From an uncultured Clostridia bacterium (GTDB lineage: Bacteria; Bacillota; Clostridia; Christensenellales; UBA3700), in the NCBI GenBank assembly GCA_947177795.1, contig CAMWVR010000001.1, positions 6,101 through 70,100 on the forward strand: 64,000 bases of DNA. Direction: 5' to 3'. Of the stretch, positions 3,446-64,000 are shown piece by piece. Numbering within the stretch: position 1 is the stretch's first letter; each line of letters starts with the position of its first letter. Under the pieces are notes generated by a model, which was given only the letters and a program-made list of their open reading frames with translations, searched no databases and had not been told where the DNA came from. Both the position numbers and the translations under genes were made by a program.

Positions 3446-4144
3446 TTAGTTCATAAGTTCTTTTTTATATTTGTAATAGCTATTTCTACTACACCCACAT
3501 AGTTTAATAACTTCATCATCAGAAAGACTTCCGCCAAAACTCTTGGAATGAGTTTGTATTATCTTCTTACAGTCTATGGACTTCTTCGTAGTTAGGCTAG
3601 TACCTTTCACCAAACCTATTTGACTTCCCTTTACCTTGCCTTCTCTCATTCCTTCTGATATTCTTTGATGCAAGTCTGTTACTTCCTTTTCTGACTGCTC
3701 GAATGCTACCTTAATTTGTTGTTGAGCGAGTTTCATCAATAGTTTATTTACAAGTTCCATATTACCTACAAAATATTCGTCAATAGCATCGTTACCTGTA
3801 TTGACTTCTATATCCAAAACCTTTGCTACTGACTTCCTATAGACTTCCGTATTTATATGGGGCTCTTTAAGAAAAACTAAATTTATATCTTTGTTGAACA
3901 ATTCTTGATAGTTTGCAAACCCTTCGTCTGCATTTCTACTCATACGGCTCACGCTGTCAAAAACTACAATATCCCCACTCCTAAGCATCTTCTTCAACCT
4001 CTCCCACTCTGGACGAAGTGTAGTTGTACCGGTATAAAATTCGCTTTTAATTATTGCTGATGGGTAGACTGACGTTATGTTTGTTATCTGCCTATCTAAC
4101 TTTTGCTTTCTTGTACTTACTCTAACGTATCCGTATATTGCCAT
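3446..4144 (-). CDS. serine recombinase (resolvase/invertase family)
   Basis: N-terminus MAIYGYVRVSTRKQKLDRQ carries the catalytic Ser motif, followed by DSVSRMSRN. The C-terminal part LSDDEVIKLCGCSRNSYYKYKKEL is HTH-like. Confidence 0.9.
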   Translation of the reverse strand: MAIYGYVRVSTRKQKLDRQITNITSVYPSAIIKSEFYTGTTTLRPEWERLKKMLRSGDIVVFDSVSRMSRNADEGFANYQELFNKDINLVFLKEPHINTEVYRKSVAKVLDIEVNTGNDAIDEYFVGNMELVNKLLMKLAQQQIKVAFEQSEKEVTDLHQRISEGMREGKVKGSQIGLVKGTSLTTKKSIDCKKIIQTHSKSFGGSLSDDEVIKLCGCSRNSYYKYKKELMN

Positions 4145-11066: not shown

Positions 11067-12280
11067 AGTTTGACATACTCCACGTTGATATTATCTTTGA
11101 GCAAGTTGATAAACAAAGTAAGGTCTTTCTTTGACTGCTTTCTGATACTATATAGCAACTGCTGATTATCTAATGGAACGACTACACTTGACTTTACTTC
11201 TTTAATTTCCTTCGTCTTTGCTACCTTTATCTCATCCAACTTGATATACGGTGACATCGTTGCAAAGTTCTCTTGGAAAGTATTCTCAAATTCAATAGTA
11301 CTTAGTTCCTCTTTGCCATTTAATATTACGTTACGTTGCGTTTCTACAAACAAACTGACGAGCATAGATGGGATGCCATTAGATAACTTATATAAAGTCC
11401 TTGCGAACTCGGCATTAAACTCAACCCTTTTTAAAGTGTACTGATATTTAAACAGTATTCTCACGAAGTTAAAATAGTATTCGTCATAGTCCATTTTCTC
11501 TATAGATATTCCTATAGTCCTACGACTTAAATACTCCTTTGTTTCAAAATATCTATTAGCCGATTCATTCCCCACAAAGCAAACTGCAATGTTGGATTGA
11601 TTAACAAGTTGAGTTAAATAATTTATAAGAGTAATTCCTTTTCTGCTGTCATTTGCCACACGCTATATCTCATCTATTACAAGAAGTGCAACATGATTTA
11701 TTAGCACGTTGCTCACCGCAGCTAATAATGCGTCTGTGGTTGCTGTAACGTAGTTATTTGCAACGAAATAATTCGTGCCGAGCAATCTGTCAACCCCTTG
11801 TAAAATTGCGTATAAAAGGCTTTTAAATGAACCGTCTGAAACGCACTCTATGAACAGGATCGGGATAATCTCTCGATATGGTTTTTGGCTAATGAGTATT
11901 TTGTCTGCAATAATGTCAGCACATCTTTGGACACTCGAAGTTTTCCCTAATCCTGCAGTTCCTGTTATCTTAAAAGATTCCAAACCGCCAACCAAGCCAT
12001 AGCGTTTCAAGCCTTTAATTGCCCTAAAATTATCGTTCTGCAAGCTAACTTCCAATAGCGTACTCTTCTTTTCCAACGAATTAAGAATCGCCATATAAAG
12101 CCTATTATAGACGTATAGTGTTATCTTGTTGGGGATATAGAGTTTGTATACGTCTATAAGTGCTGTAAGTCTATCGGGCATCTCTATTAAGCCTTCTTGA
12201 TAGTGTGGCAATACTGTGAGTGCCTTAATAAGTTCCTCGCTTGAAAGGTACTTATTTAACTGTTCTTTTATTCTATCCAT
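11063..12280 (-). pseudogene. tnsC: TnsC/TniB-like AAA+ ATPase interrupted by an in-frame TAG
   Basis: Walker A is GTAGLGKTS and Walker B is LLVIDEI. The next codon (11663-11665) is TAG, and the same frame continues RVANDSRKGITLINY.... The two track ORFs (11663..12280 and 11063..11659) are in one frame. Confidence 0.8.
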
Positions 12281-14060
12281 TATTACCTCCTCTGTTTATC
12301 TCCGACTTTCTATGTTGGCGTACATTTGTTAAGTCTACCTTTTGACCTAAGATAGAGTTGGCAATCAGTTCTATATCCCTTGATAGGTCAATACTACCTT
12401 GTATAGCTATATCCTCAACACTTCTCTCTACTTGCTTCTTTTTCTCTTTTATAGCTTGTACTTCTTCCATATCCATATCGGTAAAATATGATTCTATAAT
12501 CTCAAAAGGTGTGTAAACGCCATTTTCGCACAGCCATACTCTACTTACATTGTTGGGATTGTAGGCAACAACACATTCGCCACCTTTTAGGTATCTTTCA
12601 GTATAGTTTAAATTCTTGTATCTTTCTTTATTTACGTGTAGTCCGTCTCTCTTAAAATAGCCTTTGCCTCTTGGTAATAATGTAAGCCAAAGCATTTCGT
12701 CATCAACTTTTATAAGGTTATTTTTGCTTGACGGCAGACAATAATTCCACAACTCATTTGCAAATGGCTGAACGATTCCTACAGTCTCATATGGTAGATT
12801 TATAATCCTCTTAGAGTTGTATTTGATAATGCAAAGCAAGACTATCTTTTCAAATTCTTTTAATGTGAGCGTAGCATTTTTCCTATAGTCAACACCGCCA
12901 CGCTCTTGATAGTGCTCAAATATTACGCCTTTATTTGCAAGTTCCGTCTTATAGGAGTTCTGTATGATACCAAAGAATCGCTCGACTAAACTCTTTTGGT
13001 CAGGACGATAAGGTGGAAGATTTATTATTTCTACGCCTAATTCTGCAACTTGAGAGAATGTCTCTGAAGTGTATTCTCGACCTTTATCCGTAACGAATTT
13101 GTGGGGTAAACTACTGCAGTCCCATGTGTTAGAATCTATCTCAATGCCAAACTTTTTACAATGCTCTTGCTTATCTGCAACGATATTCTCTATCAATGCT
13201 TTCAGTGAGTTTATACCCTTATCGAAGCATAAAGAATACCCCATACAAAGAGAAGTGTAACCATCCACGCAAGCCGTTAACGTTGGACGTCCCAACAATT
13301 CTCCTTTATCGTTGACTAAAAATATATCGCATACAGTACTATCAAATAATCCAACGCCTATAGAAGAGCAAAAGTCTCTGACATTACCGAGCATAACACG
13401 ATGATTTCTTAAGAACTCCCCCTTGCCCTCTCTCGATATAATCAGATTCTCTCGTTTTACTGTCTTATGGAAAAAGTAATCGAACTGCCTGAAGGTTGGG
13501 ATATGAGAGAGCAATCTACCTTGTTTATCACAGTACTTGTCTTTCAACATTCGGCGGTAGCACTCTATTAAAGGCATTTTAAGAGCATTGAAATAATATT
13601 TGTTCAATGCCCATCTATAGTTTTTCTCATCTGCTGTAAGCGGTTTTTCTTTGCATTTACTGTTGGGCAAAAAGATGCAGATGTCTTGGAAAGCTAAGTA
13701 ATCGCACAATCTACTCTTGATTGTATTCTTACTCAAATGAAACCTCTCGGCACATAAAGCAATGGCTTGATTTCTTTCGTAGTCATTTCCTACAGTTGGA
13801 ATGATAAAACTGATACTGCCATATTTGCTATGAATTATTTGCTTTTGCTGTTGAGAGAGACTGTCATAGCTCACAAGATTAACACCGACTCTTACTCTCA
13901 ACTCCTCCTCTTCTATCTGTAGATAATCTGATAAGAAGTCCTCGCCCACCCAATAAGGCATATTCCTCTTGACGCAATCAATAATCTGTATGCGGTCATC
14001 TTCAATAGTTAAGACCCTATAAATACAGTCGCCTTTATAGAATAAATCATTAATCTTCAT
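12273..14060 (-). CDS. tnsB: TnsB-like DDE (Mu/rve-type) transposase
   Basis: 595 aa. DDE context: STVCDIFLVND, FVTDKGREYTS, QKSLVERFFG. The stop overlaps the tnsC ATG (ATGGATAG). Confidence 0.88.
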   Translation of the reverse strand: MKINDLFYKGDCIYRVLTIEDDRIQIIDCVKRNMPYWVGEDFLSDYLQIEEEELRVRVGVNLVSYDSLSQQQKQIIHSKYGSISFIIPTVGNDYERNQAIALCAERFHLSKNTIKSRLCDYLAFQDICIFLPNSKCKEKPLTADEKNYRWALNKYYFNALKMPLIECYRRMLKDKYCDKQGRLLSHIPTFRQFDYFFHKTVKRENLIISREGKGEFLRNHRVMLGNVRDFCSSIGVGLFDSTVCDIFLVNDKGELLGRPTLTACVDGYTSLCMGYSLCFDKGINSLKALIENIVADKQEHCKKFGIEIDSNTWDCSSLPHKFVTDKGREYTSETFSQVAELGVEIINLPPYRPDQKSLVERFFGIIQNSYKTELANKGVIFEHYQERGGVDYRKNATLTLKEFEKIVLLCIIKYNSKRIINLPYETVGIVQPFANELWNYCLPSSKNNLIKVDDEMLWLTLLPRGKGYFKRDGLHVNKERYKNLNYTERYLKGGECVVAYNPNNVSRVWLCENGVYTPFEIIESYFTDMDMEEVQAIKEKKKQVERSVEDIAIQGSIDLSRDIELIANSILGQKVDLTNVRQHRKSEINRGGNNG

Positions 14061-16118: not shown

Positions 16119-17567
16119 TCACTGCATATCACGCGCAAGCAGATCTATCGAGAAGTCAAGTCTTCTCATGCTCTCTTCTTTGCCGAGAAGTTCCGCCATT
16201 TCCGTAGCTCCGCCCGGAGTGCTTGCCACGCCCGTGATCGCCAAACGCAATGGCAGGAATATCTGTCCGCTCTTGCAAGCGAGTTTTTCCGCAAGCGCCA
16301 TACCTCTTTGCTTAAGCGCCTCGTCGGTCCAATCCTCAAAGTCTTTGAAGTCCTCTCTGATAGCTTTTAAATTGTTGAGAGCTATCTCTTTGGTAATCTT
16401 CATCTTTTTATGCTCAAACATAGCAGTGTCGTACTCGCCGAACTCCTCGAGAAAATCCACCTTTTCGGCAATTTCGCCAAGCACTTCCACTCTGGGAATC
16501 AAGAGTTTTGCAAGCGCAAGATAATCATATTTGCCTGCGATTTTACTGCTCTCAAAATACGGTTTTGCCACTTCGACAAACTCCTCGGGAGTCATTTGCT
16601 TGATATATTCGCCGTTGAGCCAACGCATCTTTGCTTCGTCGAAAATACTCGGCGACTTGGATATGCCGTCGACGTCGAATTGCTCGACGAGCTCGTCCAT
16701 ACTCAACTTTTCCTCGTTGCCCTTGGGCGACCAACCGAGAAGCGCAATATAGTTGACGATTGCCTTTGGCAAATATCCCTTTGCAAGGAAGTCCTCGAAG
16801 TTTGCGTCGCCGTATCTCTTGGACAACTTGCGTTGGGCGTCTTTCATGATTGGCGAAAGGTGCATATAATGCGGTCTTTCCCAACCAAACGCGTCGTACA
16901 TAAGATTATATTTTGGCGTAGAAGAAAGATACTCGACGCCTCTTATTACGTAATTGATTGCCATAAGATGATCGTCCACGACGTTGGCAAAATTATAGGT
17001 AGGCATACCGTCCGACTTGATAAGCACGCCGTCTTCCATATCCTCGTTGGGTACGCTGATATGTCCGAATACCATATCGTCGTACTCACTTACGCCCTCC
17101 GTCGGAATATTCTGTCTGATGACGTACGGCTCGCCGTCTGCAAGTCTCTTGTCGACCTCTTCTTTTGACAATGATAAACAATGCTTGTCGTATTTTGCTA
17201 TTCCCTTATCGTCCTTGAGAGAGTCAAGTCTCTCCTTGTCGCAAAAACAATAGTACGCCCCGCCCTTGTCGACAAGTTCTTTGGCGTAATCGAGATAGAG
17301 CGACTTGCGCTCGCTTTGGATATAAGGTCCGTACCCGCCGTCCTTGTCTGGACCTTCGTCGTGCTGTATACCTGCTTTCTTAAGCGTACTGTATATCACG
17401 TCGACTGCGCCTTCGACGTATCTCTCTTGGTCGGTATCTTCTATTCTCAGCACGAATTCGCCGTTGTTTTTCTTGGCGAAAAGATACGCGTAAAGACACG
17501 TTCTTAAATTCCCTATATGCATAAATCCCGTGGGTGATGGGGCAAATCTCGTTCTTACCTTGCTCAT
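16119..17567 (-). CDS. gltX: glutamate--tRNA ligase
   Basis: RTRFAPSPTGFMHIGNLRT (HIGH region) and KLSKR (KMSKS region), in 482 aa. Confidence 0.95.
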   Translation of the reverse strand: MSKVRTRFAPSPTGFMHIGNLRTCLYAYLFAKKNNGEFVLRIEDTDQERYVEGAVDVIYSTLKKAGIQHDEGPDKDGGYGPYIQSERKSLYLDYAKELVDKGGAYYCFCDKERLDSLKDDKGIAKYDKHCLSLSKEEVDKRLADGEPYVIRQNIPTEGVSEYDDMVFGHISVPNEDMEDGVLIKSDGMPTYNFANVVDDHLMAINYVIRGVEYLSSTPKYNLMYDAFGWERPHYMHLSPIMKDAQRKLSKRYGDANFEDFLAKGYLPKAIVNYIALLGWSPKGNEEKLSMDELVEQFDVDGISKSPSIFDEAKMRWLNGEYIKQMTPEEFVEVAKPYFESSKIAGKYDYLALAKLLIPRVEVLGEIAEKVDFLEEFGEYDTAMFEHKKMKITKEIALNNLKAIREDFKDFEDWTDEALKQRGMALAEKLACKSGQIFLPLRLAITGVASTPGGATEMAELLGKEESMRRLDFSIDLLARDMQ

Positions 17568-39478: not shown

Positions 39479-42400
39479 TTACAATCTATTCATCAATCTT
39501 TGCTCTTTGAGCAAATCCTGATATCTCTCGATCTGATCTTCTCTGAGGTCGATCATATTCTTTGCGGCTTTGCAAGCCTGAGCGTCGGCGACGACGACTT
39601 CGGTCTCTTTGACTTTGATCTTAGTGCCGTCGTTGGTGGCGTCTTTGCGGATATCCTTGAGATACTCGTCTTCCATTCTGAAGAGAGCCACGGTCGTGTC
39701 TTTCTTTATCGTCAGCTTGATGAGCGGATTGACCGAAGACTGACCCAAGAGAATGAAGTAAGTGGACTTTTTCTCTTTGCACTTGTCTTTCTTCAAAGCG
39801 TATTCTCTAAGGCTGTCAAAGTACTTTTGTTGGGTCTTGGAGAGTTTTGCATAAGCTTCGTCGAGCGTAAGTCTGGGAGCCTTTTCTTTGACTACCGCCG
39901 CGCGGGGAGCCGCGTGAACCTTGACTTCTTTCTCCACGACTTTTTCCACCACCTTCTCGACAGGCACTTCGACTCTCACTTCTTTTTCCACGATCTTTTC
40001 GACGGGCACCTCTTTCTCGACGATTTTCTCGACCTCTACGGGTACTTCGACAATCTTCTCCACGGGCACTTCCACGACTTTTTCGATTATCTGCGGTTCT
40101 GCCACTGCGGCGGCGAGAGGTCTCTCGTCGTTGCGCTCAAGGAGTTTTTCGATGAGCATCTCTTGATTTTTCATCATTTGATTCATACGCTCGTCGTTGC
40201 GCTCCATCATCTTTTGCATATTCTTATCGTTCTTGTCAATCAGCTCTTTGATCGTATTATCGTTGCTTGCAGGTTGAGGCAACATTTGTTGCATACCGGG
40301 GAGCAACGCCGTGACGGTGTCGGAGATGATAGCTCTGACGTCTTCGGGAGCCATGCCGCGCTGAATGCCCATATATGCGCCTCCGCCCTGCGGCGCGCCG
40401 TCGGGTCCGGGTCCCATATTGGCTCCGCCGAACATACGCATGAACATCATCTGCATATCCTCGTCTCTGCGGCGATACTCCTCTTCTCTGCGCATATTGT
40501 CTTCTTCGCGGTGACGGCGATATTCGTCGTCTCTGCGAGAATACTCTGCCTCTCTCTTGCGCTCGTCGAGGTCTTTTTGGTTGCGGTTATACTCTTCGAG
40601 GCTCTCCTCGTAATTCTCTTCCGCCTTGTTGCGTCTGCTCTTGGCGGCGACCATCATGATCAAAGACACCACTGCCAAGCCGATCATGACGCAGGCTATC
40701 GCCGTCCATATCGACATCGCAATACCCAAGAATGACGACGACGTTCCCAAATACGCCATTGCGTAGGCTGACGTATCCAGCTTATCGGATTTTTTCTTAT
40801 ACTTCTTACGCTCGTTGTCAAACTTGGCTGTCTTGGCGAGGAATATTATCGTCAGCAACAGCGAAATTGCAATGGCAATTATCTGCCAAATCGGATAGTC
40901 TTTGAATTTTTGGAGTATCGCGCCAAAGTCGATACCGTTGCCGTCGTTTCCGTCACTTCCACCCGGATTATTACCGCTCGGATTGCTAGGATTGCTTGGA
41001 TCGTCGGGATCGTTGGGAGTGGTATTGGGCGCGTCGGGATCGACGTTGGGATAATTTGGGTTTTTGGGATCGTTGGGGTCATAAAGTCCGCCTGCGATGT
41101 CCGCCTCCGTGAGGCTGAAGGTCAAATAATCCGTATCGAAGTCAGAGCCGTAGCCGTCTGCGACGGAGAATTTGATGTTGTTCTGATAAGCGGGCTTAAT
41201 AGACGCCTTGATCTTATATACGGTATCTTTGACGAGGTCTGTCACCGAAGTGATTTCGTTGCCTGCCTCGTCCGTGATAGTATACTCTATTGCGTTGATT
41301 TGACCGAATGCAAGATCGAGCACGGGCGGTCTTGCGGAATTCTTCCAAGTCGGAGTGATCTCTGCGGGAGTGATCTCAAATTCAAATCTCGTGTCGCCGT
41401 CGATGACGAATCTGTTGGCGTAAGCCGACTTGAGCGTGATCTCCACCCAATACTTACCGCACTCGACGGGAGCTCCGCCCATGAGCGTAAATCCGTCTTC
41501 TTTGAAATAAGCGAGGTCGAAATAACCGTTGTTGAGATTTGCGCCCGTAGTCTGCACCGTGACCTGTCTGGGTTGGGTATTATAAGAGAACGTCGTCTTT
41601 GCAGGCGACACGCCCACCTTGATGATAGAAGCGTTGATAGCGCCTATCATAAAAGGTCTGGACTGCGGATTGGACTTGTCGAACTTATAGTTGACGCTGT
41701 CGGTCAGCGACGGAACTGCCACGTACCACTTTGCGCCGTCCGCAGGCAACTCGAGATCGTTAGCAGTCAAGCCCGTTGCGCCCGCAGGTATAGTGCCGTT
41801 GGAATCCGTCTCGTAATACGTATATTGCACGATAGTGTCGGCTGCGGGGTCTTTGAGAGCCAATACGTTGAAATTCTTGTTGGTGTCGGGATGAGGCACG
41901 CTCTGCCAGCTTGCCGTAGATATCGTGCGAGGCACGACTTCCCAAGGCTGTTCCCAAGTGAACGTACCGTCGTAAGTGACGGGATCGTCTGGGTCTGAAG
42001 GATTAGGCTTGACGGGCAAGATATAATTGCCCACGTAATCGGGATCGAGCTCGAATTCCACCGACGCCGTACCCGTGTCGCCCACCGTTGCGCCTTGATT
42101 GGTGGAATATCCTTGAACCAACAAGCCCTTGGGCAGCGTCTTCGGGTCGAGCGTAGCAGACACTGCCACACCGCCGTTATACGCCAACTGTCCGTTGTCG
42201 AGCCACTTGACGTCGGTCAAGTCAAAGAGCGCAGGGTCTATCTTCCAATTTATCGTAAAGGTGATGACCGAAGCCAAATCGCCGTCTTTCCACACGTCGA
42301 CGATCGTCGTATAGCTGTCTACATTGTAGCCCTTCTTGGTATTGGTAGACGCAGGATCTGTGGTGTCCATCTTGTAGCCGTCGTTGTAACTCGTCGTCTT

Positions 42401-44929
42401 GACGGAATACCCCGTCGGACAAGCCGAAGCCTTGAACTCGGTGTATTTGCCCGAATAAGATATGGTCTGCTTTGTGAAAGTGACTTCTTTGGGATTGCTG
42501 TCTATGTCGCAATCCATATAAAAGCCCGTCTGCGCCTTTCCGCCGACGTACAACTGCCATCTGAGCACGTTTTTGCTCGACTCGTTCACTTGCAGCGTCG
42601 GAGAATTGGTAAACTCTATTTTATACTCCGCCGAAGAACAATTTCCCGTCAAAGTATATAAACTCGTATGGTGAGTCACGGTGGCGAGATTAAGCGTAAC
42701 GTTTTCCGATCCGCTTCCGTCCGTCAGCGTAACTTTGCTTGATATCGTCTTGGGAGAAGAACCCGACCGCTGAGCTCTCACTGTGAATTCTAATGGATAA
42801 TCCTCAAATATTTGATTGGGCTGAACTGTCAACACCGACTTGACGGTGTCGCCCTCTTTGCCCTTAAGGGCGGCGGTAGTTCCGTCGTCTGCCGTAAGCG
42901 TAGCTTTGACAGTCGCCTTCTCTATCTCGAATGCCAGCTTGCCGTCTGTCGGCGAGCCCTTTGCCCATTGATAATAATCGGGGAGTTTGAGACCAAAGGT
43001 CAATTCATATTTTTTGACGTCGACGGCTTTGTAATTCCAATCGTCCACGTTGGTCACGCCCGTAGGGGGCGTCACGCTGACTAAGTCGTCGAAATAATAT
43101 TTGCCCGTCAAGTCCTCAAGATCGTCTAAATAATCTTGATCGTAATACAGCTCGAATGTAACGCCGTTCTTACCCGCAAAGTCTTCTTTGCCGTCGCCGT
43201 TCCATTTGGGGAATGTCAAATACCTCTTGATTACTTTGAATTTAATAGTGATAGCGTCCGTCGTGCCGTCCGACCAACTGTCCGTCTTGTCTATGAGTTC
43301 CAACTTGACGGAATAAGAATCATACGGATCCTTAGGCATTTCCTCGACTGAGCCCTTGTAATACGTAGCCTTGACTCTGTCTTTAAAGTCCTTCGTCCAC
43401 CAATCTGCGGCGGCCGCTGACGCGGCAAAATCAAGATCCAAGGCGCTGCCCGTATACTCTACCTCTACGTCCTTTGGTTCAGCGAGTTTGGGCGCCGCGG
43501 CATCCGCGGCAGAGGAAAGATTTAAGTTAAGCGCAGGACGCACAGCGAACTCAGACGCGCGCACGTAATCATAGTCCCGATCGCCCGCGGAGGTCAGCGT
43601 ATAGGCACCGTTCGAATTACTGCCAGAGCCCGACCTCAGCCAGGCCTGCGCTGCGGTAGAAGAACTATTGCTATACTTACGTTGAGAGTCGTTAAGGGCC
43701 CAAAGTCCCGTAATGCCCGTACCCGTTCCGTTCTCGCCGACTTCTGCCCAGCTTGGGAGCCACAACAAGTCGTCGCCCCAATCAAAATAAGTCGGGTCGT
43801 TGCTCGCAGAGCTGTAGACCAACGTCGTCGAGCCGATCGAAACGTTGGTGTCTTTCACTGACTTTTCTTGCTCGTAATGCACGGGGCAAGATGCGTTATA
43901 TTGGTTATACCATCTATTGTTGTTATATCCGCTAGTGGGCATGCCCATAGACGAAGGCAACTTATTCTTCGACGCCTCGTTCTGTCCGCTGCCCCACTGG
44001 TGGCTTGAATCGTTTTTGCCGTTGACCGTCAATATGTCGTAGAAGTTCTCGTCTTGCATATAGAGCACGTCTTTTGGCTTGACGAGGAAGTTGGTGACGT
44101 TTTTCTTTGCGGTGATGTCCGTGAAAATCGACCAATCGGCGCTGTAATTGGATATTGCGTTGGCAGCCGTCAACGGCGTCAAAGTGCTTGCCGACGTTGC
44201 GTATTTCACGTCTTTTCCCGCGCTGTCTTTGCCGTTGAGCAAAATAGATCTTATCATCGACGAGCTGTAAAAAGACGAAGCGTATTTTTCGGTATGTTTC
44301 CAATGCGCGTTACCCGACGTGCTTTGTTGCCAACCGTTCCAATAAGTCTTATAGTTGTCGATCGGGTCCTTGAGCATCAAGGTGAGCACCACGTCGCCTT
44401 TGCTTACGTCAGCCGACGTACCCGTCGTGGTCAAAGCCACCACGCTCCACACGTGACCGCCGAAAGTGACTTCAATGTTCTTTCCGCCCGTCAAAGTGCG
44501 GATATCCTCGGAGTTCATACCGTAATGGATAGATCCCACGTATGCGTTGGAGTATCCATTGGTCGACGTGTTGGGGATATAGGTGTTGTCCCCCGCCTTG
44601 GTTGCGTTGTATTGCGACTTATCCATTTCCGTCTTCACGTCGGCAAGAGTTGCGTCGGCTGTCTTTCCCGACAGCGCGTTGAAGAGCGCAGTCAAATTGT
44701 CTATATTGAATATACTCTTGTCTTGAAGTTGAGTCGCATTGTCTCCTCGATTGGGCGAGAGCAACTCTCCTATCGGCACGATTCCCGACTCGTTGGTCGG
44801 ATTTACCTTTGCTGCATTAGCAACCAAATTGACTTGTCCAGCCAATACCAAACTCATTATTGCGCACAATACTATTATCATGCTGAGCAATAAATATAAT
44901 CGCTTTTTTGCATTCATAGTCCTTTGCAT
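39479..44929 (-). CDS. 1816-aa membrane-anchored surface protein; DGR target
   Basis: Signal peptide (LLLSMIIVLCAIMSLVLAGQVNLVANA). The N-terminal ~470-aa domain ends in the VR. A long stalk of Ig-like repeats follows, then hydrophobic segments IWQIIAIAISLLLTIIFLA and IAMSIWTAIACVMIGLAVVSLIMMVAA, then a highly charged tail. Confidence 0.9.
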   Translation of the reverse strand: MQRTMNAKKRLYLLLSMIIVLCAIMSLVLAGQVNLVANAAKVNPTNESGIVPIGELLSPNRGDNATQLQDKSIFNIDNLTALFNALSGKTADATLADVKTEMDKSQYNATKAGDNTYIPNTSTNGYSNAYVGSIHYGMNSEDIRTLTGGKNIEVTFGGHVWSVVALTTTGTSADVSKGDVVLTLMLKDPIDNYKTYWNGWQQSTSGNAHWKHTEKYASSFYSSSMIRSILLNGKDSAGKDVKYATSASTLTPLTAANAISNYSADWSIFTDITAKKNVTNFLVKPKDVLYMQDENFYDILTVNGKNDSSHQWGSGQNEASKNKLPSSMGMPTSGYNNNRWYNQYNASCPVHYEQEKSVKDTNVSIGSTTLVYSSASNDPTYFDWGDDLLWLPSWAEVGENGTGTGITGLWALNDSQRKYSNSSSTAAQAWLRSGSGSNSNGAYTLTSAGDRDYDYVRASEFAVRPALNLNLSSAADAAAPKLAEPKDVEVEYTGSALDLDFAASAAAADWWTKDFKDRVKATYYKGSVEEMPKDPYDSYSVKLELIDKTDSWSDGTTDAITIKFKVIKRYLTFPKWNGDGKEDFAGKNGVTFELYYDQDYLDDLEDLTGKYYFDDLVSVTPPTGVTNVDDWNYKAVDVKKYELTFGLKLPDYYQWAKGSPTDGKLAFEIEKATVKATLTADDGTTAALKGKEGDTVKSVLTVQPNQIFEDYPLEFTVRAQRSGSSPKTISSKVTLTDGSGSENVTLNLATVTHHTSLYTLTGNCSSAEYKIEFTNSPTLQVNESSKNVLRWQLYVGGKAQTGFYMDCDIDSNPKEVTFTKQTISYSGKYTEFKASACPTGYSVKTTSYNDGYKMDTTDPASTNTKKGYNVDSYTTIVDVWKDGDLASVITFTINWKIDPALFDLTDVKWLDNGQLAYNGGVAVSATLDPKTLPKGLLVQGYSTNQGATVGDTGTASVEFELDPDYVGNYILPVKPNPSDPDDPVTYDGTFTWEQPWEVVPRTISTASWQSVPHPDTNKNFNVLALKDPAADTIVQYTYYETDSNGTIPAGATGLTANDLELPADGAKWYVAVPSLTDSVNYKFDKSNPQSRPFMIGAINASIIKVGVSPAKTTFSYNTQPRQVTVQTTGANLNNGYFDLAYFKEDGFTLMGGAPVECGKYWVEITLKSAYANRFVIDGDTRFEFEITPAEITPTWKNSARPPVLDLAFGQINAIEYTITDEAGNEITSVTDLVKDTVYKIKASIKPAYQNNIKFSVADGYGSDFDTDYLTFSLTEADIAGGLYDPNDPKNPNYPNVDPDAPNTTPNDPDDPSNPSNPSGNNPGGSDGNDGNGIDFGAILQKFKDYPIWQIIAIAISLLLTIIFLAKTAKFDNERKKYKKKSDKLDTSAYAMAYLGTSSSFLGIAMSIWTAIACVMIGLAVVSLIMMVAAKSRRNKAEENYEESLEEYNRNQKDLDERKREAEYSRRDDEYRRHREEDNMRREEEYRRRDEDMQMMFMRMFGGANMGPGPDGAPQGGGAYMGIQRGMAPEDVRAIISDTVTALLPGMQQMLPQPASNDNTIKELIDKNDKNMQKMMERNDERMNQMMKNQEMLIEKLLERNDERPLAAAVAEPQIIEKVVEVPVEKIVEVPVEVEKIVEKEVPVEKIVEKEVRVEVPVEKVVEKVVEKEVKVHAAPRAAVVKEKAPRLTLDEAYAKLSKTQQKYFDSLREYALKKDKCKEKKSTYFILLGQSSVNPLIKLTIKKDTTVALFRMEDEYLKDIRKDATNDGTKIKVKETEVVVADAQACKAAKNMIDLREDQIERYQDLLKEQRLMNRL
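43529..43650 (-). repeat. DGR variable repeat (VR), codons ~427-467 of the target
   Basis: Gap-free 122-nt alignment to TR 45599-45720. All 13 mismatches are at plus-strand T of TR, which is A on the coding strand. It encodes AQAWLRSGSGSNSNGAYTLTSAGDRDYDYVRASEFAVRPAL. Confidence 0.9.
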
Positions 44930-45410: not shown

Positions 45411-45598
45411 AAAAAAGTCCGACTGCCTTACCCAAAAGGCTGGTATTCACAAAGTCGGTTCTCGACGTCGTTATACAGTCGGACAGGTTTCGCCGTAATT
45501 ACTCACGGCAGGACGCAAGCCCCTTCATACTCTTTTCATCAGTCCGCCTATCCTTGAATATGACGGATACGGGAAAACTTGCTCTGGGCAAGCGAGTG
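45411..45598 (-). ncRNA. structured region 3' of TR (candidate DGR RNA spacer/priming region) ending in a terminator
   Basis: On the minus strand it lies immediately after TR. Nested stems are GCCGT/ACGGC (45492-45509) and GCCTT/AAGGC (45425-45440). A 9-bp closing stem GTCCGACTG/CAGTCGGAC (45417-45425 / 45476-45484) is followed by TTTTTT. Confidence 0.5.
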
Positions 45599-45720
45599 AA
45601 GCGCAGGACGCACAGCGAACTCAGACGCGCGCACGTTATCATTGTTTCGATCGCCCGCGGAGGTCAGCGTTTAGGCATTGTTCGAATTATTGTTATTGCC
45701 CGACCTCAGCCAGGCCTGTG
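45599..45720 (-). repeat. DGR template repeat (TR)
   Basis: Non-coding copy of the VR. In the VR frame it reads QAWLRSG NNNN S NN A (TAA) TLTSAGDR NN D N VRASEFAVRPAL, so AAY codons sit exactly at the VR-variable positions. It lies 70 nt downstream of avd. Confidence 0.9.
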
Positions 45721-45789: not shown

Positions 45790-46275
45790 TCATAATTTGT
45801 CTTTTGTCGCCTTGACCCAACCCGTCAAGAGCTTTCGCACGTCGGCAATCTGCTTGACGATGATCGTCATCTGTCTGACGCTTATCGCCTGCTTGGTCTT
45901 GGCGGTCTCGGTATAGAAGTCCAACAGATTGAGCGAGACCATGGCTTTCTTTTGCCATGTGATACGATCTTCGCCCCGCATATAGTTTGCCATATATAGA
46001 TTCTCGATGACGTCGATCGAGCAATTGATGAGTCGCGAGACGATATTCCACCTCAATTTGGCGGGCGACTTCTCCGTGATGACGAAAATATATTCGCTCA
46101 GCTTCTTGGCGTGAGTGAACACTGCCATTTCCTTATCCCTCGGCGTGTCGAAATCGTGAATTCGGAATGGCTTGCGGCTTGCTTTGCCAAGCTCGGGTTG
46201 ACACGGCGGTACGCCGAGTTCTGCATCAATCTCTTTGTTCAAGGCCTCTAAAGCCTTGTCTTCTTCGTTTTGCAT
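45790..46275 (-). CDS. avd: DGR accessory variability determinant (Avd, four-helix-bundle protein)
   Basis: Small helical basic protein between the RT and TR. The ATG at 46275 follows AAGGAG and lies 1 nt after the RT stop. The track ORF begins at an upstream TTG (46302). Confidence 0.75.
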   Translation of the reverse strand: MQNEEDKALEALNKEIDAELGVPPCQPELGKASRKPFRIHDFDTPRDKEMAVFTHAKKLSEYIFVITEKSPAKLRWNIVSRLINCSIDVIENLYMANYMRGEDRITWQKKAMVSLNLLDFYTETAKTKQAISVRQMTIIVKQIADVRKLLTGWVKATKDKL

Positions 46276-46276
46276 A

Positions 46277-47398
46277 TTATTCTTTTTCTCCTTTGTGTTC
46301 AAAAGTCAATTTTGACTCCAATTCTTTCTCGAATTTGTAGCTGTGCGCATGCGTCAAATGCCCGTGGAACGCCGCCTGCGAGCTCTTGACCCGCTCAAGC
46401 GGTATCAAATCTTCAAGATAAGCCTTCTTGAGCAATCTCGCCCGCCACCTCAAACGCCGCTTGGTGGCTTTTTTGACGACTTTCACTACCCTGCCGTCTT
46501 CCGTCATGATAAAGCGGAATCCAAGATACGTCACGCCGTTTTTGATTGGGAATATCTGCGTCTTGTCATTGAGATAAAGCCCCAATTCTTTGACGGTCTT
46601 TTTGATCTCTTCAAGGGCGAGTTTCACAACCTCCAAGTCTTGGTGCAACAGCACGAAGTCGTCCATATACCTAGAGTATACCTTGAATCGCAGTTTTTCC
46701 TTGACGAGTCTGTCGACCTTGTCGAGATAGAACATCCCAAAGACTTGGCTCGTCTGATTGCCGATAGGTATCCCCCTGCCCGTCGTCTTGCCGTCTGCGC
46801 CCAACGGCTCTATGCCGTATTTGGTCAAGAAAGACTTGCCCGAATGGTAACTGTCTATTATGTCCCGCACTATCTTCTTGATCTTCTCGTCTTGGATATG
46901 CTTGCATACCGTCTGCTTTAAAAGCGTGTGCGGCATGCTTGGAAAATATTTCAATATGTCGCACTTGAGAAAATACCCCGTCCTGCCGTGCTGTCTCACG
47001 TAGTCCTTGAGCTTTCTCTCAAATCTGTCCAATGCAAAATGCGCCCCCTTGCCCTCTTGGCAGGCGCAATTGTCTACTATCGTGTGCCGTAAAAAATAAG
47101 GGGCTAGCAAGTCGTCGCATATGACGTGCTGCACCACCCTGTTTGCATACGGCAACGTCTGAATTTCTCTCTTCTTGGGTTCTTCGATTATAAAGCTGTG
47201 GTATCTCCCCACCTTGTACCTGCCGCTCATCAGCTCCGAATGCAATTCGTTGAGATGACTCAACATCGTCATTTCAAAGCGTACCAACGGCTTTTTGTCC
47301 CTCTTGCAGCGTCTTCCGCGCAAGTGCGCTCTATAGAGCGCCTCGTAAGTAAATAGTTCTTCAAAAGTTTTTGTAATCACTTCTATATGATACAGCAA
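46277..47398 (-). CDS. DGR-type reverse transcriptase
   Basis: RT motifs include IPIGNQTSQ (the DGR-specific I/LGxxxSQ) and the YMDD catalytic box (SRYMDDFVLL). The start codon is uncertain (TTG at 47398 or GTG at 47380). Confidence 0.9.
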   Translation of the reverse strand: MLYHIEVITKTFEELFTYEALYRAHLRGRRCKRDKKPLVRFEMTMLSHLNELHSELMSGRYKVGRYHSFIIEEPKKREIQTLPYANRVVQHVICDDLLAPYFLRHTIVDNCACQEGKGAHFALDRFERKLKDYVRQHGRTGYFLKCDILKYFPSMPHTLLKQTVCKHIQDEKIKKIVRDIIDSYHSGKSFLTKYGIEPLGADGKTTGRGIPIGNQTSQVFGMFYLDKVDRLVKEKLRFKVYSRYMDDFVLLHQDLEVVKLALEEIKKTVKELGLYLNDKTQIFPIKNGVTYLGFRFIMTEDGRVVKVVKKATKRRLRWRARLLKKAYLEDLIPLERVKSSQAAFHGHLTHAHSYKFEKELESKLTFEHKGEKE

Positions 47399-59579: not shown

Positions 59580-62500
59580 TCATTTGACTTTGACGGAAAT
59601 AGTCACGTTGTACGTTATACCCGCGCTGACCACGTCGTAACTTACGTCCAAGGTATTGAGACTCTTCTTTTGGGTGTCGACTGCGACGGATACTTTTCCG
59701 TTGACGGCGTTGTTTACTCCCAAGAACACCAACGTCTCTCTTATATCGGCGTTGAACGTAGCCGTATCCTCTTGGATATCGAATTGAGCGTTGGCAAAAT
59801 ACAAGTCGTCAAATTCAAAGCCTATGCCGTCTGCGCCAAAGGCGATATTCGACACTTCGAGTCTATCGTCCACTATCTCTCTGCCATTCTCATACTTATA
59901 CAAAGACATACCGCCCGACTTGACTTCAATCGTCAAGTCGCGATTGGTCGACTGCCCGTCTTCTTGATAGGACGCAATTCTATAGAGATCTTCCCTGGAA
60001 AACTCGCCGTTGTCTTCGCTCGGCGTACAGCCTGCGAATACAGTCGAGCATACGAGAACTACCGCTACGGCAATTACGAATACCTTGCTTGCTCTCTTGA
60101 CGCCGACGCTCTTTGCCTTATTGCTGCGTTGCGCTTCTTGCTCGCCCTCTTTCTTTTTCTTTGCGAACAACATCATACCGGCTGCAAACAACACGCCTGC
60201 TCCGCTCATCGACAGCGCGACCGTCTTTGCCGCAGTATTTGTTTTGCCTGCTTTGCCCACAGCCGTAGCGCCTGCCTTTTGAGCGCCTGCGATAACGCTG
60301 TTGGCTCCACGGAGAAGCTGCTCGTAAGACGCCTGTAACTTAGCGAACTTAGCTTGATCTATGAGCAACATATCCTCTTGAGATACCGAATTGATAAACG
60401 CAAGGACTTTGCTCTCGTACTCTTGGATATTGGAGAAGTCGATTTTGTCAAACTTCGCAAGAGTGCTTTGGATTGCAGATATATCGATACCAGTATGCAG
60501 ATTCAACGTTATCTCTTGGGATTGCAGATAGTTTGCCGTCTCTGCAAATCTCACTTTGACAACGTAAGATGTATCTGCGTGTAGGTCGACGAAAGTATTT
60601 CTGTTGACGTAACCTGCTCCGTTGAAGCTTACTTCCATTCCCTCTATGTGGCTTGAGATCGTGATCTGGTTGTAGTTGACGGTGATTTTGAGATCGTTTG
60701 CGCTGACTTGACGCTCAGCCTTGGTTATCGTAAAGGAAATCTTATCCGATACGCCGCTGAAGATATTTGCGTCTGCGTCGGCAGGCTCGATATGCACGAA
60801 GTATTTACCTGCGTTGACGATCTTATCGCTGACGGAGTCTCCGTTTTCCACTCTGCGGTAGAACTTTCTTACGTACGTACCCGCTTCGTCGTCTCTCTCA
60901 TATTTGATTTCGCCGTTCTCTTCAATTTGAGTATACTTGCCGTGAGCTTTTGCTAAAGCGTCTGCCTCAGCCTTGGAAAGACTTGAGATAGCGACGTATT
61001 GGAATACGCTGAACTTAAGCGCTTTTGCGATATTCTCGTTAGACGTAACGACTCTGAAGTCGTCGTATCTGTCCTGTCCGTTGTAGACCTGCTCGTAACT
61101 ATGTAAACTTACGTATCTTTCAACGTCGGACAACTCTCCGCCAAGCACGTGCAAGTCGCCGAAGTTCATTTCGATATTGTAGTTGCGGTATCTCGGCATG
61201 ATGATTTGGATGATCTCGCCGTCAGAACCCACTACCTCTTCGGTAATCCAATTTCCGTCTTCGTCCAAGAAGTCGGGATCGGGAACTAGACCGTCGAATG
61301 CCAACTTGACCACGCCTCTCTTGACTCCGAGTTCTTTATAATACTCGTCGATATACATCGTAGCCTTGAGATCCTCTTCGTTCTGCACGAATTGATCTTG
61401 AGAATCTTCTGCGTACTTATAAGGCTTATAGAAGTCGTCGCCGTAAATTTGCTCCGCCTCTTCCTTAGTATAATAATGCCAGCCGGCTTCTTCGTGGATC
61501 TCTCCTCTCATAATAGGAGTCAACGAACCCGTTACCGAATAAATTCTGTAAGCAGGCAAGACGTCGATTTTGACGTTGAGCTTTTGTACGATTACTTCTA
61601 CCGAACCGCGAACGTAATTGCTGTCAAACACGAGCGTATAGTTGGGATTGTCTATCTCGGAGATAAAGACTTTATATCTTCCAACGTTTCTCGGTTCGCT
61701 TGCCTCGGTAGACGGCACTCCGTCCACGACTTCAAAATAATCATAGACCAATCCGATGCCGGCGCTTGCGCCGTCATCCAATTCTGCGAAGTGCGCTTTG
61801 ATTTTTTCGTTGAGCGTTGCGTCGTAATTTGCGCCGTTGAACTTGACTTCGACGATTGTTTCGCCCTCTATGTCAACGCCTGTCAGCGTAAGCGACTTAG
61901 GAGTTATTTCAAACTCGGCTTCTTCGATATCCAAATAGTAATTGCCATATCTATCGTTGGGCAACTCTACCTTAGTTGATATGTAATACGTTCCGACAGG
62001 ACTTCCCTTTTCGACTCCGTCACGCAATTCTATAAGATTTATGTTGTCGCTCTCAAAGAAACCGTTTTCGCCGACGACGATTGCCTCCAAAAACTTTGGC
62101 AAATCTTCTCCGTAGACCACGCTGTAGGTATTGAGGAACACCTTTATCTTGACCGTTCTCTTATTGACCGTATAATTGCCTTCCGTTACGTGAACGATAT
62201 AGTTGGAGATCTTGTTGTATCCGTGCTCGTCGACGTCGCCCGTCATATCTTCTTCTCTATAGAGAACTCTGTAAGTCTGACTTATTGCCGCAAATCTGTC
62301 GCTATCGCTCAAATACGGAGTGATGACTATGTTGTCCTCTTCCAAGAATCTATTGACTTTATTTTTCCCGTCGTCTTTGAGGTCGGTATATCTCCAGGCT
62401 CTGACCGTTTCGTCATTCACGTTGGCGTTGCCGATAAACGGTTTCATCTCGTCACCGTAATTTCTCGTTACGTCATTGAGCGTAATAAATACCTCTCTTT

Positions 62501-64000
62501 GCTTGACCACGATACGGTAGGGATCATGTACGACGTTATAGTTATACTTTGTATTTTCATTCGTCGTCCAGCTACCGCTGCTTATTATCTTAAAGTCAAT
62601 CTCTACTTTTACTTCATACGCGCCTGCATCTTTAGGCGAATCTACCCAAATATCGGTATTGTTGCCTTTGTCGTCCAACTTATTATACTTAAAGATCGCA
62701 ACGCCGTATTGATATTCATATTGATAAATACCCTTATCGCCCGCTTGTCTTTGGAACACGACTCCAAAGTCTGTCGACTCTATGGCAACGCCGTACTCAA
62801 GGTTCATTACTCTATTTTCGTCGTTGACGTTAAAAGTAAGCCCCACGTCTCTTTGTTTGATCTTGACGTCGACCAAAATCGAAGCGTCCTTATAGTTGCT
62901 GAATACAGAATTGAGTATTTCGTATTTTATTTGATATTCGCCTGCGTCAAAAGGCTCTTCATTAATGACTTCGTAAACTCCGTTGACCTTTTTATAATAA
63001 GTCGATTTGGTAGACGCCATAGGTATGCCGTCCACGCCCGTAAACGTGACGAAAGGTTTTACCTTGTTTTTTATAAGATTTCCGTAAGCAAATTCAAAAT
63101 AAGTTTGATCGCTTAACGTTGCGTCTGCCGGCTCTATTTCCACGACGAATTTGGTGACGTCAGGCAAAACGTAGTTGGCGGAGACATTACCGCCGACCAA
63201 GCTCAATATCATTTCAAATTGACCGACGTTGAGCATATTCAACTCTCCGTCGCCGTGAGCGATATAACTGAATTTGAGCAAGCTCTCGTCTTTTGCAAGC
63301 ACGTTATAGAATGCGAGTTTAGCATTCGAAGCGATAGCTTGTTCCTTTTTGGAAAAGATTTTTACCTCGTCCGCCAGCGTCAAGTTTTTTGCCGCATATG
63401 GGACTTTGATATAATAATATTTATCGTCTCCGTCTTCTATCAATTCGGCGCTCATATTGTCAACAAAGCCGATTTCAAGTTGCTCTATGACGAAGTCAAT
63501 GCAATACTCTACTTTTCCCGCGCCCGCAAGCTCGTAATTCTTGTTGGACAGACTTGTGACGACCACTTTATATTTACCTGCGTTGACACAGCTGTCCGTC
63601 TTGACGTAAGATTGTGAAAAAGAATCCCACACTCTATACTCGTAATTTGCGCTACACGTCTCATTGTTGATGATTGCGCCGCTTGGGAAGTAAATATCAA
63701 ACACGACAGGATCGCCGTCATAAGGCGTCGTATACTTGCCGTAAGATATGATGTCTTGCGTAATAGGATCTTGTTCGATATCACCGATTTTGTTAATATC
63801 ATTGGCATAATTGAATCCGACTGTCACCGATTTGGGATTGACTGTCTGAATTACTCTTTGCTGCCAATCTATGAGCTTCTCGCCGTCTTTGTTGACAGGC
63901 TCGTAATCCGGGTGCGTCTCTTTATATGCATTGAAGACGGGATCGTCGTAGATATACGAGACGTATCTATACGTTGCGTTGAGAAATTGGATATAACTGT
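59580..64000 (-). CDS. giant surface protein with MBG/Ig-like repeats; 5' end beyond the window
   Basis: The frame stays open from the track start (GTG 63827) to 64000. Repeated ...ITPK.LT... / NY.L modules. Near the C-terminus come TM LSMSGAGVLFAAGMMLFA, a basic loop, a second TM VFVIAVAVVLVCSTVFAGC and a ~165-aa terminal domain. Confidence 0.85.
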   Translation of the reverse strand, partial: SYIQFLNATYRYVSYIYDDPVFNAYKETHPDYEPVNKDGEKLIDWQQRVIQTVNPKSVTVGFNYANDINKIGDIEQDPITQDIISYGKYTTPYDGDPVVFDIYFPSGAIINNETCSANYEYRVWDSFSQSYVKTDSCVNAGKYKVVVTSLSNKNYELAGAGKVEYCIDFVIEQLEIGFVDNMSAELIEDGDDKYYYIKVPYAAKNLTLADEVKIFSKKEQAIASNAKLAFYNVLAKDESLLKFSYIAHGDGELNMLNVGQFEMILSLVGGNVSANYVLPDVTKFVVEIEPADATLSDQTYFEFAYGNLIKNKVKPFVTFTGVDGIPMASTKSTYYKKVNGVYEVINEEPFDAGEYQIKYEILNSVFSNYKDASILVDVKIKQRDVGLTFNVNDENRVMNLEYGVAIESTDFGVVFQRQAGDKGIYQYEYQYGVAIFKYNKLDDKGNNTDIWVDSPKDAGAYEVKVEIDFKIISSGSWTTNENTKYNYNVVHDPYRIVVKQREVFITLNDVTRNYGDEMKPFIGNANVNDETVRAWRYTDLKDDGKNKVNRFLEEDNIVITPYLSDSDRFAAISQTYRVLYREEDMTGDVDEHGYNKISNYIVHVTEGNYTVNKRTVKIKVFLNTYSVVYGEDLPKFLEAIVVGENGFFESDNINLIELRDGVEKGSPVGTYYISTKVELPNDRYGNYYLDIEEAEFEITPKSLTLTGVDIEGETIVEVKFNGANYDATLNEKIKAHFAELDDGASAGIGLVYDYFEVVDGVPSTEASEPRNVGRYKVFISEIDNPNYTLVFDSNYVRGSVEVIVQKLNVKIDVLPAYRIYSVTGSLTPIMRGEIHEEAGWHYYTKEEAEQIYGDDFYKPYKYAEDSQDQFVQNEEDLKATMYIDEYYKELGVKRGVVKLAFDGLVPDPDFLDEDGNWITEEVVGSDGEIIQIIMPRYRNYNIEMNFGDLHVLGGELSDVERYVSLHSYEQVYNGQDRYDDFRVVTSNENIAKALKFSVFQYVAISSLSKAEADALAKAHGKYTQIEENGEIKYERDDEAGTYVRKFYRRVENGDSVSDKIVNAGKYFVHIEPADADANIFSGVSDKISFTITKAERQVSANDLKITVNYNQITISSHIEGMEVSFNGAGYVNRNTFVDLHADTSYVVKVRFAETANYLQSQEITLNLHTGIDISAIQSTLAKFDKIDFSNIQEYESKVLAFINSVSQEDMLLIDQAKFAKLQASYEQLLRGANSVIAGAQKAGATAVGKAGKTNTAAKTVALSMSGAGVLFAAGMMLFAKKKKEGEQEAQRSNKAKSVGVKRASKVFVIAVAVVLVCSTVFAGCTPSEDNGEFSREDLYRIASYQEDGQSTNRDLTIEVKSGGMSLYKYENGREIVDDRLEVSNIAFGADGIGFEFDDLYFANAQFDIQEDTATFNADIRETLVFLGVNNAVNGKVSVAVDTQKKSLNTLDVSYDVVSAGITYNVTISVKVK

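Follow-up and report, generated by a model that had tools for sequence, protein, structure and literature searches.

Adenine-specific diversification of a predicted lectin-like head in a giant membrane-anchored surface protein of a Christensenellales-type gut bacterium

A diversity-generating retroelement (DGR) lies beside a very large surface protein gene in a 64,000-nt chromosomal stretch (referred to here as the window; GenBank assembly GCA_947177795.1, contig CAMWVR010000001.1, positions 6,101 to 70,100 of the forward strand) of an uncultured Clostridia bacterium (Christensenellales; UBA3700). The target gene (39479..44929, minus strand) is open over 1,816 codons, and full-length homologues could be aligned to its product. 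We consider it probable that this protein serves a Christensenellales-type gut bacterium as a variable-tip adhesin or as a ligand-binding “tentacle” of its cell, and that a transmembrane (TM) region, a tail, and a conserved C-terminal domain (C-dom) together act in it as a family-wide anchoring or organizing module. In the model that we propose, an active chromosomal DGR would replace 40 codons (aa 428 to 467) with adenine-mutagenized cDNA, and the segment so diversified would close an N-terminal lectin-like head as a beta-hairpin flanked by loops. A signal peptide would export this head, which would stand on a beta-rich stalk of ~850 aa, while a first TM segment (TM1, aa 1347 to 1365) and a hydrophobic hairpin (aa 1388 to 1429) would hold the protein in the membrane and leave a 387-aa tail inside the cell. 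The TM-tail-C-dom block would then be a cytoplasmic anchoring or organizing module shared by paralogous giant surface proteins.

The cassette reads, on the minus strand, from reverse transcriptase (RT) through accessory variability determinant (Avd) and template repeat (TR) to the target gene, with a spacer of ~0.67 kb containing repeats that resemble repetitive extragenic palindromic (REP) sequences between TR and target. The 373-aa RT (46277..47398, minus strand; TTG start) matches PF00078 (RVT_1; E = 8e-18), and the bAvd gene (45790..46302, minus strand) matches PF22296 (E = 1.4e-11; 45.3 bits against a cutoff of 40). The TR (45595..45718, minus strand) is one copy of a 124-nt direct repeat with 90% identity, located upstream of the target open reading frame (ORF); the other copy (43525-43648) lies inside the ORF and contains the variable repeat (VR; 43529..43648, minus strand), which codes for residues 428 to 467, in agreement with the position (about 427 to 467) given in a preliminary description of this locus. 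All 12 mismatches in the alignment of the two copies have A in the TR copy and another base in the ORF copy, and wherever the TR has a base other than adenine, the VR matches it with 100% identity. By hand count from the sequence, the TR contains 28 adenines and nine AAY codons, the latter at positions 435 to 438, 440, 441, 452, 453, and 455. An RT gene next to a repeat pair, repeat differences confined to TR adenines, and an Avd gene are all present, and they identify the element as a DGR. Two related loci, L006 (Christensenella sp. MGBC114095) and L082 (encoding target P0002), likewise carry RT, Avd, TR, and target beside the genes for EF-G and EF-Tu. Their RT orthologues occupy the matching relative position, the bAvd gene was found in L082 too, their TRs are nearly identical to that of the window, and the differences within their own TR/VR pairs are again confined to TR adenines.

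A comparison with a second metagenome-assembled genome (MAG) points to ongoing diversification. P0001, a homologue that is 96% identical overall to the window protein, begins right before the VR, which is a typical assembly break. Over the 80 aa compared, the two proteins differ only at nine codons (435 to 438, 440, 441, 443, 444, and 450); all nine contain a TR adenine, and each change is explained by adenine substitutions alone. Ongoing diversification is thus indicated by this one pair of near-identical strains. The opposing idea, that the cassette is a fossil and that the VR differences are historical, would find some encouragement in relatives that have decayed VRs and no adjacent DGR (partly decayed in L085, fully decayed in L084) and in the consensus sequence of L006, where the VR holds a stop codon and a disturbed reading frame. 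We regard this idea as very improbable, given that the RT and Avd ORFs are intact, that the repeats agree at every non-adenine position, that the hairpin described below is intact, and that the 96%-identical strain differs solely at TR-adenine codons.

The stop codon in L006 has a counterpart in the templates themselves. In all three TRs (window, L006, and L082) the codon aligned with residue 443 is an in-frame TAA, so that homing of an unmutated copy, or of one with A-to-G changes at that codon, would truncate the target after the head. Relatives carry Y, F, W, or L at residue 443, which are outcomes of T-N-N, and the L006 consensus has TAG at this codon (L006:11314-11316), where the ORF ends and a -1/+1 frame disturbance follows. 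The codon 443 stop could be a built-in ON/OFF switch or could be an assembly artifact of a hypervariable region.

The VR is internal because the protein is built head-first with a C-terminal anchor, and this raises the matter of where the cis-acting signals reside. The usual C-terminal position of VRs has been ascribed in reviews to a need for downstream cis-acting DNA (PMC8144416), and such signals are usually intergenic; here, the DNA that codes for the head-stalk linker would instead contain them, as an invariant GC-rich VR 3' end and a GC hairpin. The last 36 nt of the VR (GTGCGC...GCGCTT) are the same as in the TR and occur in exactly two copies in the window against zero expected by chance, and this invariant end sits where an initiation of mutagenic homing (IMH) sequence would lie. 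The hairpin (43494..43510, minus strand; GCCGCGG-ATG-CCGCGGC) lies within coding DNA at a distance of 18 nt from the VR on its 3' side, has a perfect 7-bp all-GC stem with an energy of -10 kcal/mol (z = -1.9), and encodes A-A-D-A-A-A within the linker SAADAAAP. At the matching position, L006 and L082 have GCCGCGC-TGA-GCGCGGC, encoding A-A-L-S-A-A, and thus show a compensatory G:C to C:G change relative to the window. The motif was found in all three loci with an adjacent DGR (3/3) and in none of the loci without a DGR that have at least 6 to 10 kb of upstream sequence. Phage DGR hairpins have a GC stem of 7 to 10 bp, a 4-nt GRNA loop, and a distance of 4 to 34 bp 3' of the VR (PMC3240598), and the stem length and distance in the window fit this published geometry, from which the 3-nt loop departs.

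Clostridia MAG homologues have the entire architecture of the window protein. The signal peptide (aa 1 to 40; 44810..44929, minus strand) consists of a KKR n-region, a 21-aa hydrophobic core, and VANA|AK; A37 is invariant and A39 nearly invariant across homologues, and cleavage is predicted after VANA. The head (aa 41 to 470; 43520..44809, minus strand) retains the motifs DWGxDYLWLPSxxEVG, GLWxL, WLRSG, and AVRPAxHLNL among 25 head sequences that are 24 to 77% identical to that of the window. The strings LWLPSWAEV, AWLRSGS, and VRASEFAVRPAL, from which the preliminary description had proposed a lectin-type fold ending in the VR, are present and represent the most conserved head positions across these 25 relatives, and the following observations speak for the proposal. 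The AlphaFold2 (AF2) model of residues 40 to 480 has a mean predicted local distance difference test (pLDDT) score of 79 and a predicted TM-score (pTM) of 0.86, and it places the VR on two strands (402 to 407 and 412 to 416 in model numbering) plus flanking loops, forming a beta-hairpin. Foldseek comparison of the head with the PDB gave a single notable match, the Thomasclavelia ramosa IgA protease (9qa6; probability 0.96, E = 5e-3; 338 aligned columns with 12% sequence identity and a low TM-score), followed in the list by CD23 C-type lectin domains at a nonsignificant E of 3 to 9. Against BFVD, the matches were mostly DUF6273 domain-containing proteins of gut phages (probability 0.9 to 1.0, E = 4e-3 to 0.1), with DUF1566 proteins lower in the list. 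At the sequence level, PF19789 matches the VR-bearing end of the head in 9/16 aligned relatives at E up to 0.05 (best E = 2.4e-6), and P0005, the sole individually scanned homologue to reach the PF19789 gathering score (24.1 against 23.5 bits), has its match over that same end. Therefore, on the basis of the model and its structural neighbors, the head is probably a DUF6273/C-type-lectin-like domain of the class known from tentaclins and from the N-terminal domain of ThomasA (the T. ramosa IgA protease), with the VR predicted to be exposed at its surface. A side observation is that P0032 (761 aa), which is 29% identical to the head, carries a dockerin (PF00404), so that cellulosome-like scaffolds bear such heads as well.

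Behind the head, the stalk (aa 481 to 1330, ~850 aa; 40940..43489, minus strand) appears to consist of repeated beta-rich modules with an MBG-like sequence pattern and ends in a Pro/Asn/Asp-rich linker. The earlier label of Ig-like stalk repeats finds little backing: Pfam returned nothing for the window protein's stalk, and MBG_3 matches five of 16 family members weakly, at E = 2e-3 or worse. More broadly, neither the whole protein nor three pieces of it gave a usable Pfam match, and a PDB sequence search with the whole protein gave none.

The membrane region (40643..40891, minus strand) comprises TM1 (aa 1347 to 1365), a Lys-rich loop (aa 1366 to 1387) with nine K/R residues, and a 42-aa hydrophobic stretch (aa 1388 to 1429) followed by KSRRNK, so that hydrophobic segments do precede the charged tail as first described. 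The side of the membrane on which the tail lies can be judged from distant C-dom homologues. A C-dom profile (A7; the family was defined by profiles A7/A9, seeded with the window sequence) was searched against 1.84 billion representatives, and the domain was recovered in proteins with several unambiguous topologies: soluble proteins made of a coiled coil and a P/Q-rich linker, with no signal peptide or TM segment (P0164, P0166, P0167, P0169, P0170, P0172, and P0178); proteins with an N-terminal TM segment followed immediately by a K/R cluster (P0179, P0183, P0184, P0192, P0194, P0195, P0232, and P0239); and type I proteins (P0165, whose ectodomain is cadherin-like, and P0214) in which a signal peptide and an ectodomain precede a single TM segment, which KRRGRR or KKQK and then C-dom follow. 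P0221 has a single TM segment, KRK, and C-dom as in the type I group, with no N-terminal signal peptide in the retrieved sequence. The occurrence of C-dom in signal-less, N-terminal-TM, and type I proteins argues that the domain is cytoplasmic, which in turn calls for an odd number of membrane crossings after the ectodomain. The simplest arrangement would be TM1 plus a helical hairpin at 1388 to 1429, giving a three-TM topology, and a closer relative, P0191, has a D-G...P-Q turn midway in its long hydrophobic stretch that fits such a hairpin. The earlier suggestion that the protein links its diversified tip to the cell interior therefore agrees with the homologues.

The same segments could be read as a membrane hairpin with both ends outside, in which case the charged tail, its VEK/PVEK repeats, and C-dom would form an external wall-spanning or wall-binding anchor. 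The AF2 model draws residues 1400 to 1500 as one continuous helix, which implies two membrane helices after the ectodomain and would by itself put the tail outside, and the strongly positive loop between the helices would suit a cytoplasmic loop. Charged Pro/Val/Glu/Lys repeats, moreover, resemble the wall-spanning regions of Gram-positive surface proteins. This arrangement is nevertheless distinctly improbable in our estimation, since C-dom homologues exist that have neither a signal peptide nor a TM segment, type I signal-peptide proteins have C-dom after a single TM segment and a K/R cluster, the hydrophobic stretch of the window protein is followed on its tail side by KSRRNK, and the turn in P0191 fits a helical hairpin.

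On the cytoplasmic side as predicted, the tail (aa 1430 to 1684; 39878..40642, minus strand) starts with a long E/R/K-rich helix (aa 1430 to 1500; pLDDT of 87 to 96 at 1450 to 1500) and continues with a conserved motif, TALLPGMQQxLPQ, within S1536 to S1555, a coiled segment, and VEK/PVEK repeats, which correspond to the DNA repeats at 39920-40111 (repeat family D4). C-dom (aa 1685 to 1816; 39482..39877, minus strand) occupies ~130 aa (~1685 to 1811) with many invariant columns and the signature LT..EAY..L...Q...F..L..YA ... KL.IK...T.A.F..ED ... K.KETE ... DLR..Q. A distinct C-terminal domain, which had been put at ~150 aa, is thus real, strongly conserved, and not of low complexity. Its profile found 279 clusters (50% identity) at E up to 1e-3, and the domain is at or near the C terminus in nearly all of the best 150 matches listed. 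Searches of the tail and C-dom gave no family match in Pfam, NCBIfam, PHROGs, or PDB sequences (with distant C-dom relatives included for NCBIfam and PHROGs), and no recognizable signaling or output domain. An RNase P subunit retrieved by the C-dom profile from PDB sequences (E = 0.04) is at chance level and was discarded. The C-dom model has an alpha-alpha-beta4-alpha-beta-alpha order at a pLDDT of 55 to 70, and the Foldseek matches of the C-terminal model were all nonsignificant (the T4 MotA C-terminal DNA-binding domain at E = 0.06, a Listeria YdhG-like protein at TMt 0.52 to 0.57, and aminotransferases); resting on a low-confidence model, they serve as a lead only.

The C-terminal block belongs to a large paralogous family. 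A homology search with the full-length protein gave no more than 22 proteins, probably since the candidate list was saturated by low-complexity words in the tail, and domain-wise searches and a genome scan revealed the larger family. The scan found 224 stretches, many of which match residues ~1200 to 1816 only. Among the best 80 of these 224, single MAGs hold multiple loci: at least 16 in CAMWQA01, at least 13 in JAIEDA01, at least nine in CAJUBA01, and at least seven each in CAMXSN01 and JAIDRT01. The related loci are recorded under Christensenella, Christensenellaceae, or “Clostridia bacterium” MAGs, and mouse gut catalogues supplied several of these. C-dom is 68 to 92% identical among fragments, and heads are as little as 24 to 30% identical. 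Two further observations concern how these tails evolve and operate. P0018 and P0003 to P0009 share a near-identical TM-tail block at 39% ectodomain identity, which suggests gene conversion among paralogues. In another lineage (L088:460-8751 and L089), the signal-less coiled-coil C-dom protein P0166 is encoded two genes downstream of a 2,284-aa protein whose tail is coiled and P/Q-rich like P0166 and has no C-dom, with an 83-aa coiled-coil ORF in between; this arrangement hints at tails and C-dom proteins working together.

The DGR diversifies a small minority of this giant surface-protein family. The VR of P0006 (in L083) differs from the TR of L082 and L006 only at adenines, and that of P0004 (in L001) differs almost only at adenines; neither locus has an RT within 8 to 10 kb, the hairpin is degraded in L001, and L083 gave no match to the hairpin motif. 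These two could be targets that a DGR reaches in trans, from a distance, or else copies that were diversified and then spread by recombination. In 14 other loci the head is present and no TR/VR pair was found (L002, L004, L008, L010, L011, L015, L016, L017, L020, L022 to L024, L032, and L072). L005, L007, L009, and L018 were left out of this set, as they have <1.1 kb of upstream sequence and the cassette sits 0.7 to 4.5 kb upstream of the target. In the survey of DGR-less loci, homologues with no adjacent DGR keep the tail, as the preliminary description had asked: L083, L001, L084, L085, and more distant DGR-less paralogues all do so.

This distribution bears directly on what the protein does. 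Because the TM-tail-C-dom block is found on many paralogues, few of which have a DGR, it appears to be a generic module and not an output specific to the diversified member, and an anchoring or organizing role is what such a pattern would suggest. The preliminary description had raised a diversified receptor rather than a simple adhesin, with the head capturing a ligand and relaying this through the membrane segments to C-dom, which would act on a partner or on DNA. Several features would be at home in a receptor: the tail is predicted to be cytoplasmic, C-dom and the TALLPGMQQxLPQ motif are under strong purifying selection, three membrane passes exceed the need of a simple anchor, and the weak fold matches of the low-confidence C-dom model include the DNA-binding domain of T4 MotA and the YdhG-like protein. 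We nonetheless judge a receptor unlikely. The module also sits behind many nondiversified, cadherin-like, and other heads, C-dom occurs in ectodomain-less and soluble proteins, searches of Pfam, NCBIfam, PHROGs, and PDB sequences showed no output domain such as a kinase, cyclase, or helix-turn-helix (HTH), the homologue loci share no conserved neighboring regulator, and a stalk of ~850 aa would be a poor conduit for conformational signaling. The contrast “receptor rather than adhesin” is thus unsupported, as the tail module is neither specific to the diversified member nor provided with a recognizable output domain. More doubtful still is the specific form of this idea, a DGR-diversified receptor in which a three-pass membrane region joins the head to a cytoplasmic domain of an undescribed kind, with a partner or nucleic acid as its binding target; if true, it would represent “antigen-receptor-like” sensing in a gut bacterium, and the paralogous family would be a surface-sensor repertoire with one output module.

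Several observations weigh against the variable-tip adhesin as we have drawn it. C-dom may have a signaling role, and the continuous AF2 helix through residues 1400 to 1500 would, taken by itself, favor an external tail. The head of the window protein itself has no match to PF19789, even at E up to 10, and falls below every Pfam threshold, while the Foldseek E values for the head are modest (4e-3 to 1e-1) and the TM-scores low. The hairpin also occurs in six loci whose short upstream sequence leaves the presence of a DGR undecidable, the three DGR-bearing loci have a 3-nt loop (ATG or TGA) and not GRNA as in the phage hairpins, and, since the hairpin sequence is translated and it codes for an Ala-rich linker, protein-level conservation could contribute to its retention.

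The layout of the protein invites comparison with phage receptor-binding proteins. Tentaclins are phage DGR targets with an N-terminal DUF6273 C-lectin head in which the VR forms a beta-hairpin and two loops, followed by Ig-like domains; they are 313 to 650 aa long, with between one and four Ig-like domains plus a C-terminal Ig-like virion-anchoring domain that has its own consensus (PMC10743442). The window protein is similarly head-first: its VR maps to the gene's 5' portion, where it closes a probable DUF6273/C-lectin-like domain, a chain of beta domains comes after it, and like tentaclins it appears to have an N-terminal C-lectin head with a hypermutated beta-hairpin. A VR in the N-terminal part, which had been presented as a departure from known DGR targets, therefore has a precedent in a VR-bearing lectin head placed before a stalk (PMC10743442). 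Unlike tentaclins, the window protein is cellular and 1,816 aa long, with a signal peptide, a weakly MBG-like stalk of ~850 aa, membrane segments, and a 387-aa cytoplasmic tail that ends in an unrelated conserved domain, and its context is chromosomal. Judged by architecture and context, the target falls outside the tentaclins, since it lacks their C-terminal anchor and features of phage origin.

A more radical version of this kinship, in which the cassette and its target belong to a prophage or phage-like particle and the target is a tentaclin-type receptor-binding protein, would account for the relationship of the head to phage DUF6273 proteins and for the head-first, N-terminal VR shared with tentaclins (PMC10743442), but we hold it to be extremely improbable. 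The locus has housekeeping genes of the chromosome as its neighbors (iolB/C/D-like genes, an aldolase, an Orn/DAP decarboxylase, RadC, and a trypsin-like protease, as well as an AAA_14/DUF4143 ATPase, a SpoU methylase, Dus, MazG, and a flippase), and no phage genes, structural genes included, were seen around the target within the window. The target carries a signal peptide along with TM segments and a tail predicted to be cytoplasmic, scans of IMG/VR yielded no relative of the RT and one weak relative with the head profile, and in L006 and L082 the cassette adjoins the EF-G and EF-Tu genes.

Cellular proteins provide the other comparisons. The window locus resembles classical cellular targets such as Legionella LdtA and Treponema TvpA, and the clusters of membrane-bound targets in Roux et al. 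2021 (PMC8144416), in having a chromosomal DGR, adenine-specific variation, Avd, and, as predicted, a surface-displayed lectin-type domain; it differs in that their VR is at the extreme C terminus and their cis elements are intergenic, whereas the window VR is trailed by 1,349 residues and the hairpin lies within the coding sequence. ThomasA, the best structural match, has an N-terminal DUF6273 domain at residues 31 to 322 (PMC12402451). Like the window head, this is the N-terminal head of a large Firmicute surface protein with beta domains after it; unlike the window protein, ThomasA has an M64 peptidase domain and a sortase anchor (SPXTG) and is not known as a DGR target. The DGR-diversified signaling and STAND proteins of cyanobacteria and multicellular bacteria are a precedent for a varied lectin domain acting as a sensor (PMC7517822; bioRxiv 10.1101/2023.09.22.558884). 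Those proteins are cytoplasmic, with recognizable kinase, NTPase, or effector domains and a C-terminal VR, whereas a sensor in the window protein would be extracellular and has no recognizable output domain. The closest known systems are tentaclins for layout and head and the classical cellular targets with C-terminal VRs for mechanism. By description, the window protein also resembles giant Gram-positive surface proteins such as Staphylococcus aureus Ebh, in which an N-terminal signal peptide is followed by a very long repetitive ectodomain and a C-terminal TM segment anchors the protein ahead of a charged tail in the cytoplasm. No sequence relationship between the two was found, with no search aimed at Ebh, and Ebh is not known to have a DGR, a lectin head, or a conserved globular domain like C-dom on the cytoplasmic side.

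Other features of the window complete the genomic setting. REP-like palindromic intergenic repeats (GAGATTTCTCC...GTCGAAATGAC and GTCACCTCGA...GAGAGGTCT) border most genes around the DGR (37142-37387, 39310-39436, 45167-45406, 47576-47882, and 49958-50000); they fill the TR-target spacer and recur in related genomes, including L002, L006, and L022. Directly downstream of the target (37385-39150, minus strand) are a 297-aa ORF with no Pfam match and a trypsin-like peptidase (PF13365), a pair that is not conserved beside homologues in other genomes. The AAA_14/DUF4143 ATPase gene (47908-49182, minus strand) is directly upstream of the RT gene, and on an unrelated contig a gene of that family (L086:11415-12605) is close to one for a small TM-C-dom protein, a co-occurrence that is probably coincidence. 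Positions 1 to 16000 of the window have a GC content of 31 to 39%, against 45 to 52% in the remainder, and encode, on the minus strand, a Tn7/Tn5053-like set that comprises TniQ (9798..11066), an AAA_22 ATPase (11663..12280), and, at 12273..14060, a 595-aa ORF with no Pfam match. A serine resolvase (3446..4144) is also encoded there, together with a BspA-type LRR_5/Big_2 surface protein (6047..8014) and a protein of 729 aa with an NAD-binding domain; this low-GC region ends beside gltX (16119..17567) and is probably an inserted mobile element. Further surface protein genes include that for a 555-aa BspA-type LRR_5 protein (54853-56520, minus strand), and a 1,415-aa ORF with an MBG_2 domain (59580..63827, minus strand) was compared with the target and is not a paralogue.

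The locus may offer a natural solution to the placement of an internal VR, in that the hairpin is coded within an Ala-rich interdomain linker and its base pairing is kept across the DGR-bearing loci by compensatory change although the linker amino acids differ. It also extends the head-first tentaclin layout, so far known mainly from gut phages, to a giant membrane-anchored cellular protein of Christensenellales-type bacteria, a lineage of interest for host-microbiome work. Beyond the diversified member, C-dom represents an undescribed cytoplasmic domain family, as its homologues suggest, that ends many giant Clostridia surface proteins and also occurs in soluble or minimally anchored forms, and this family may provide a handle on how Clostridia anchor, sort, or organize very large surface proteins.

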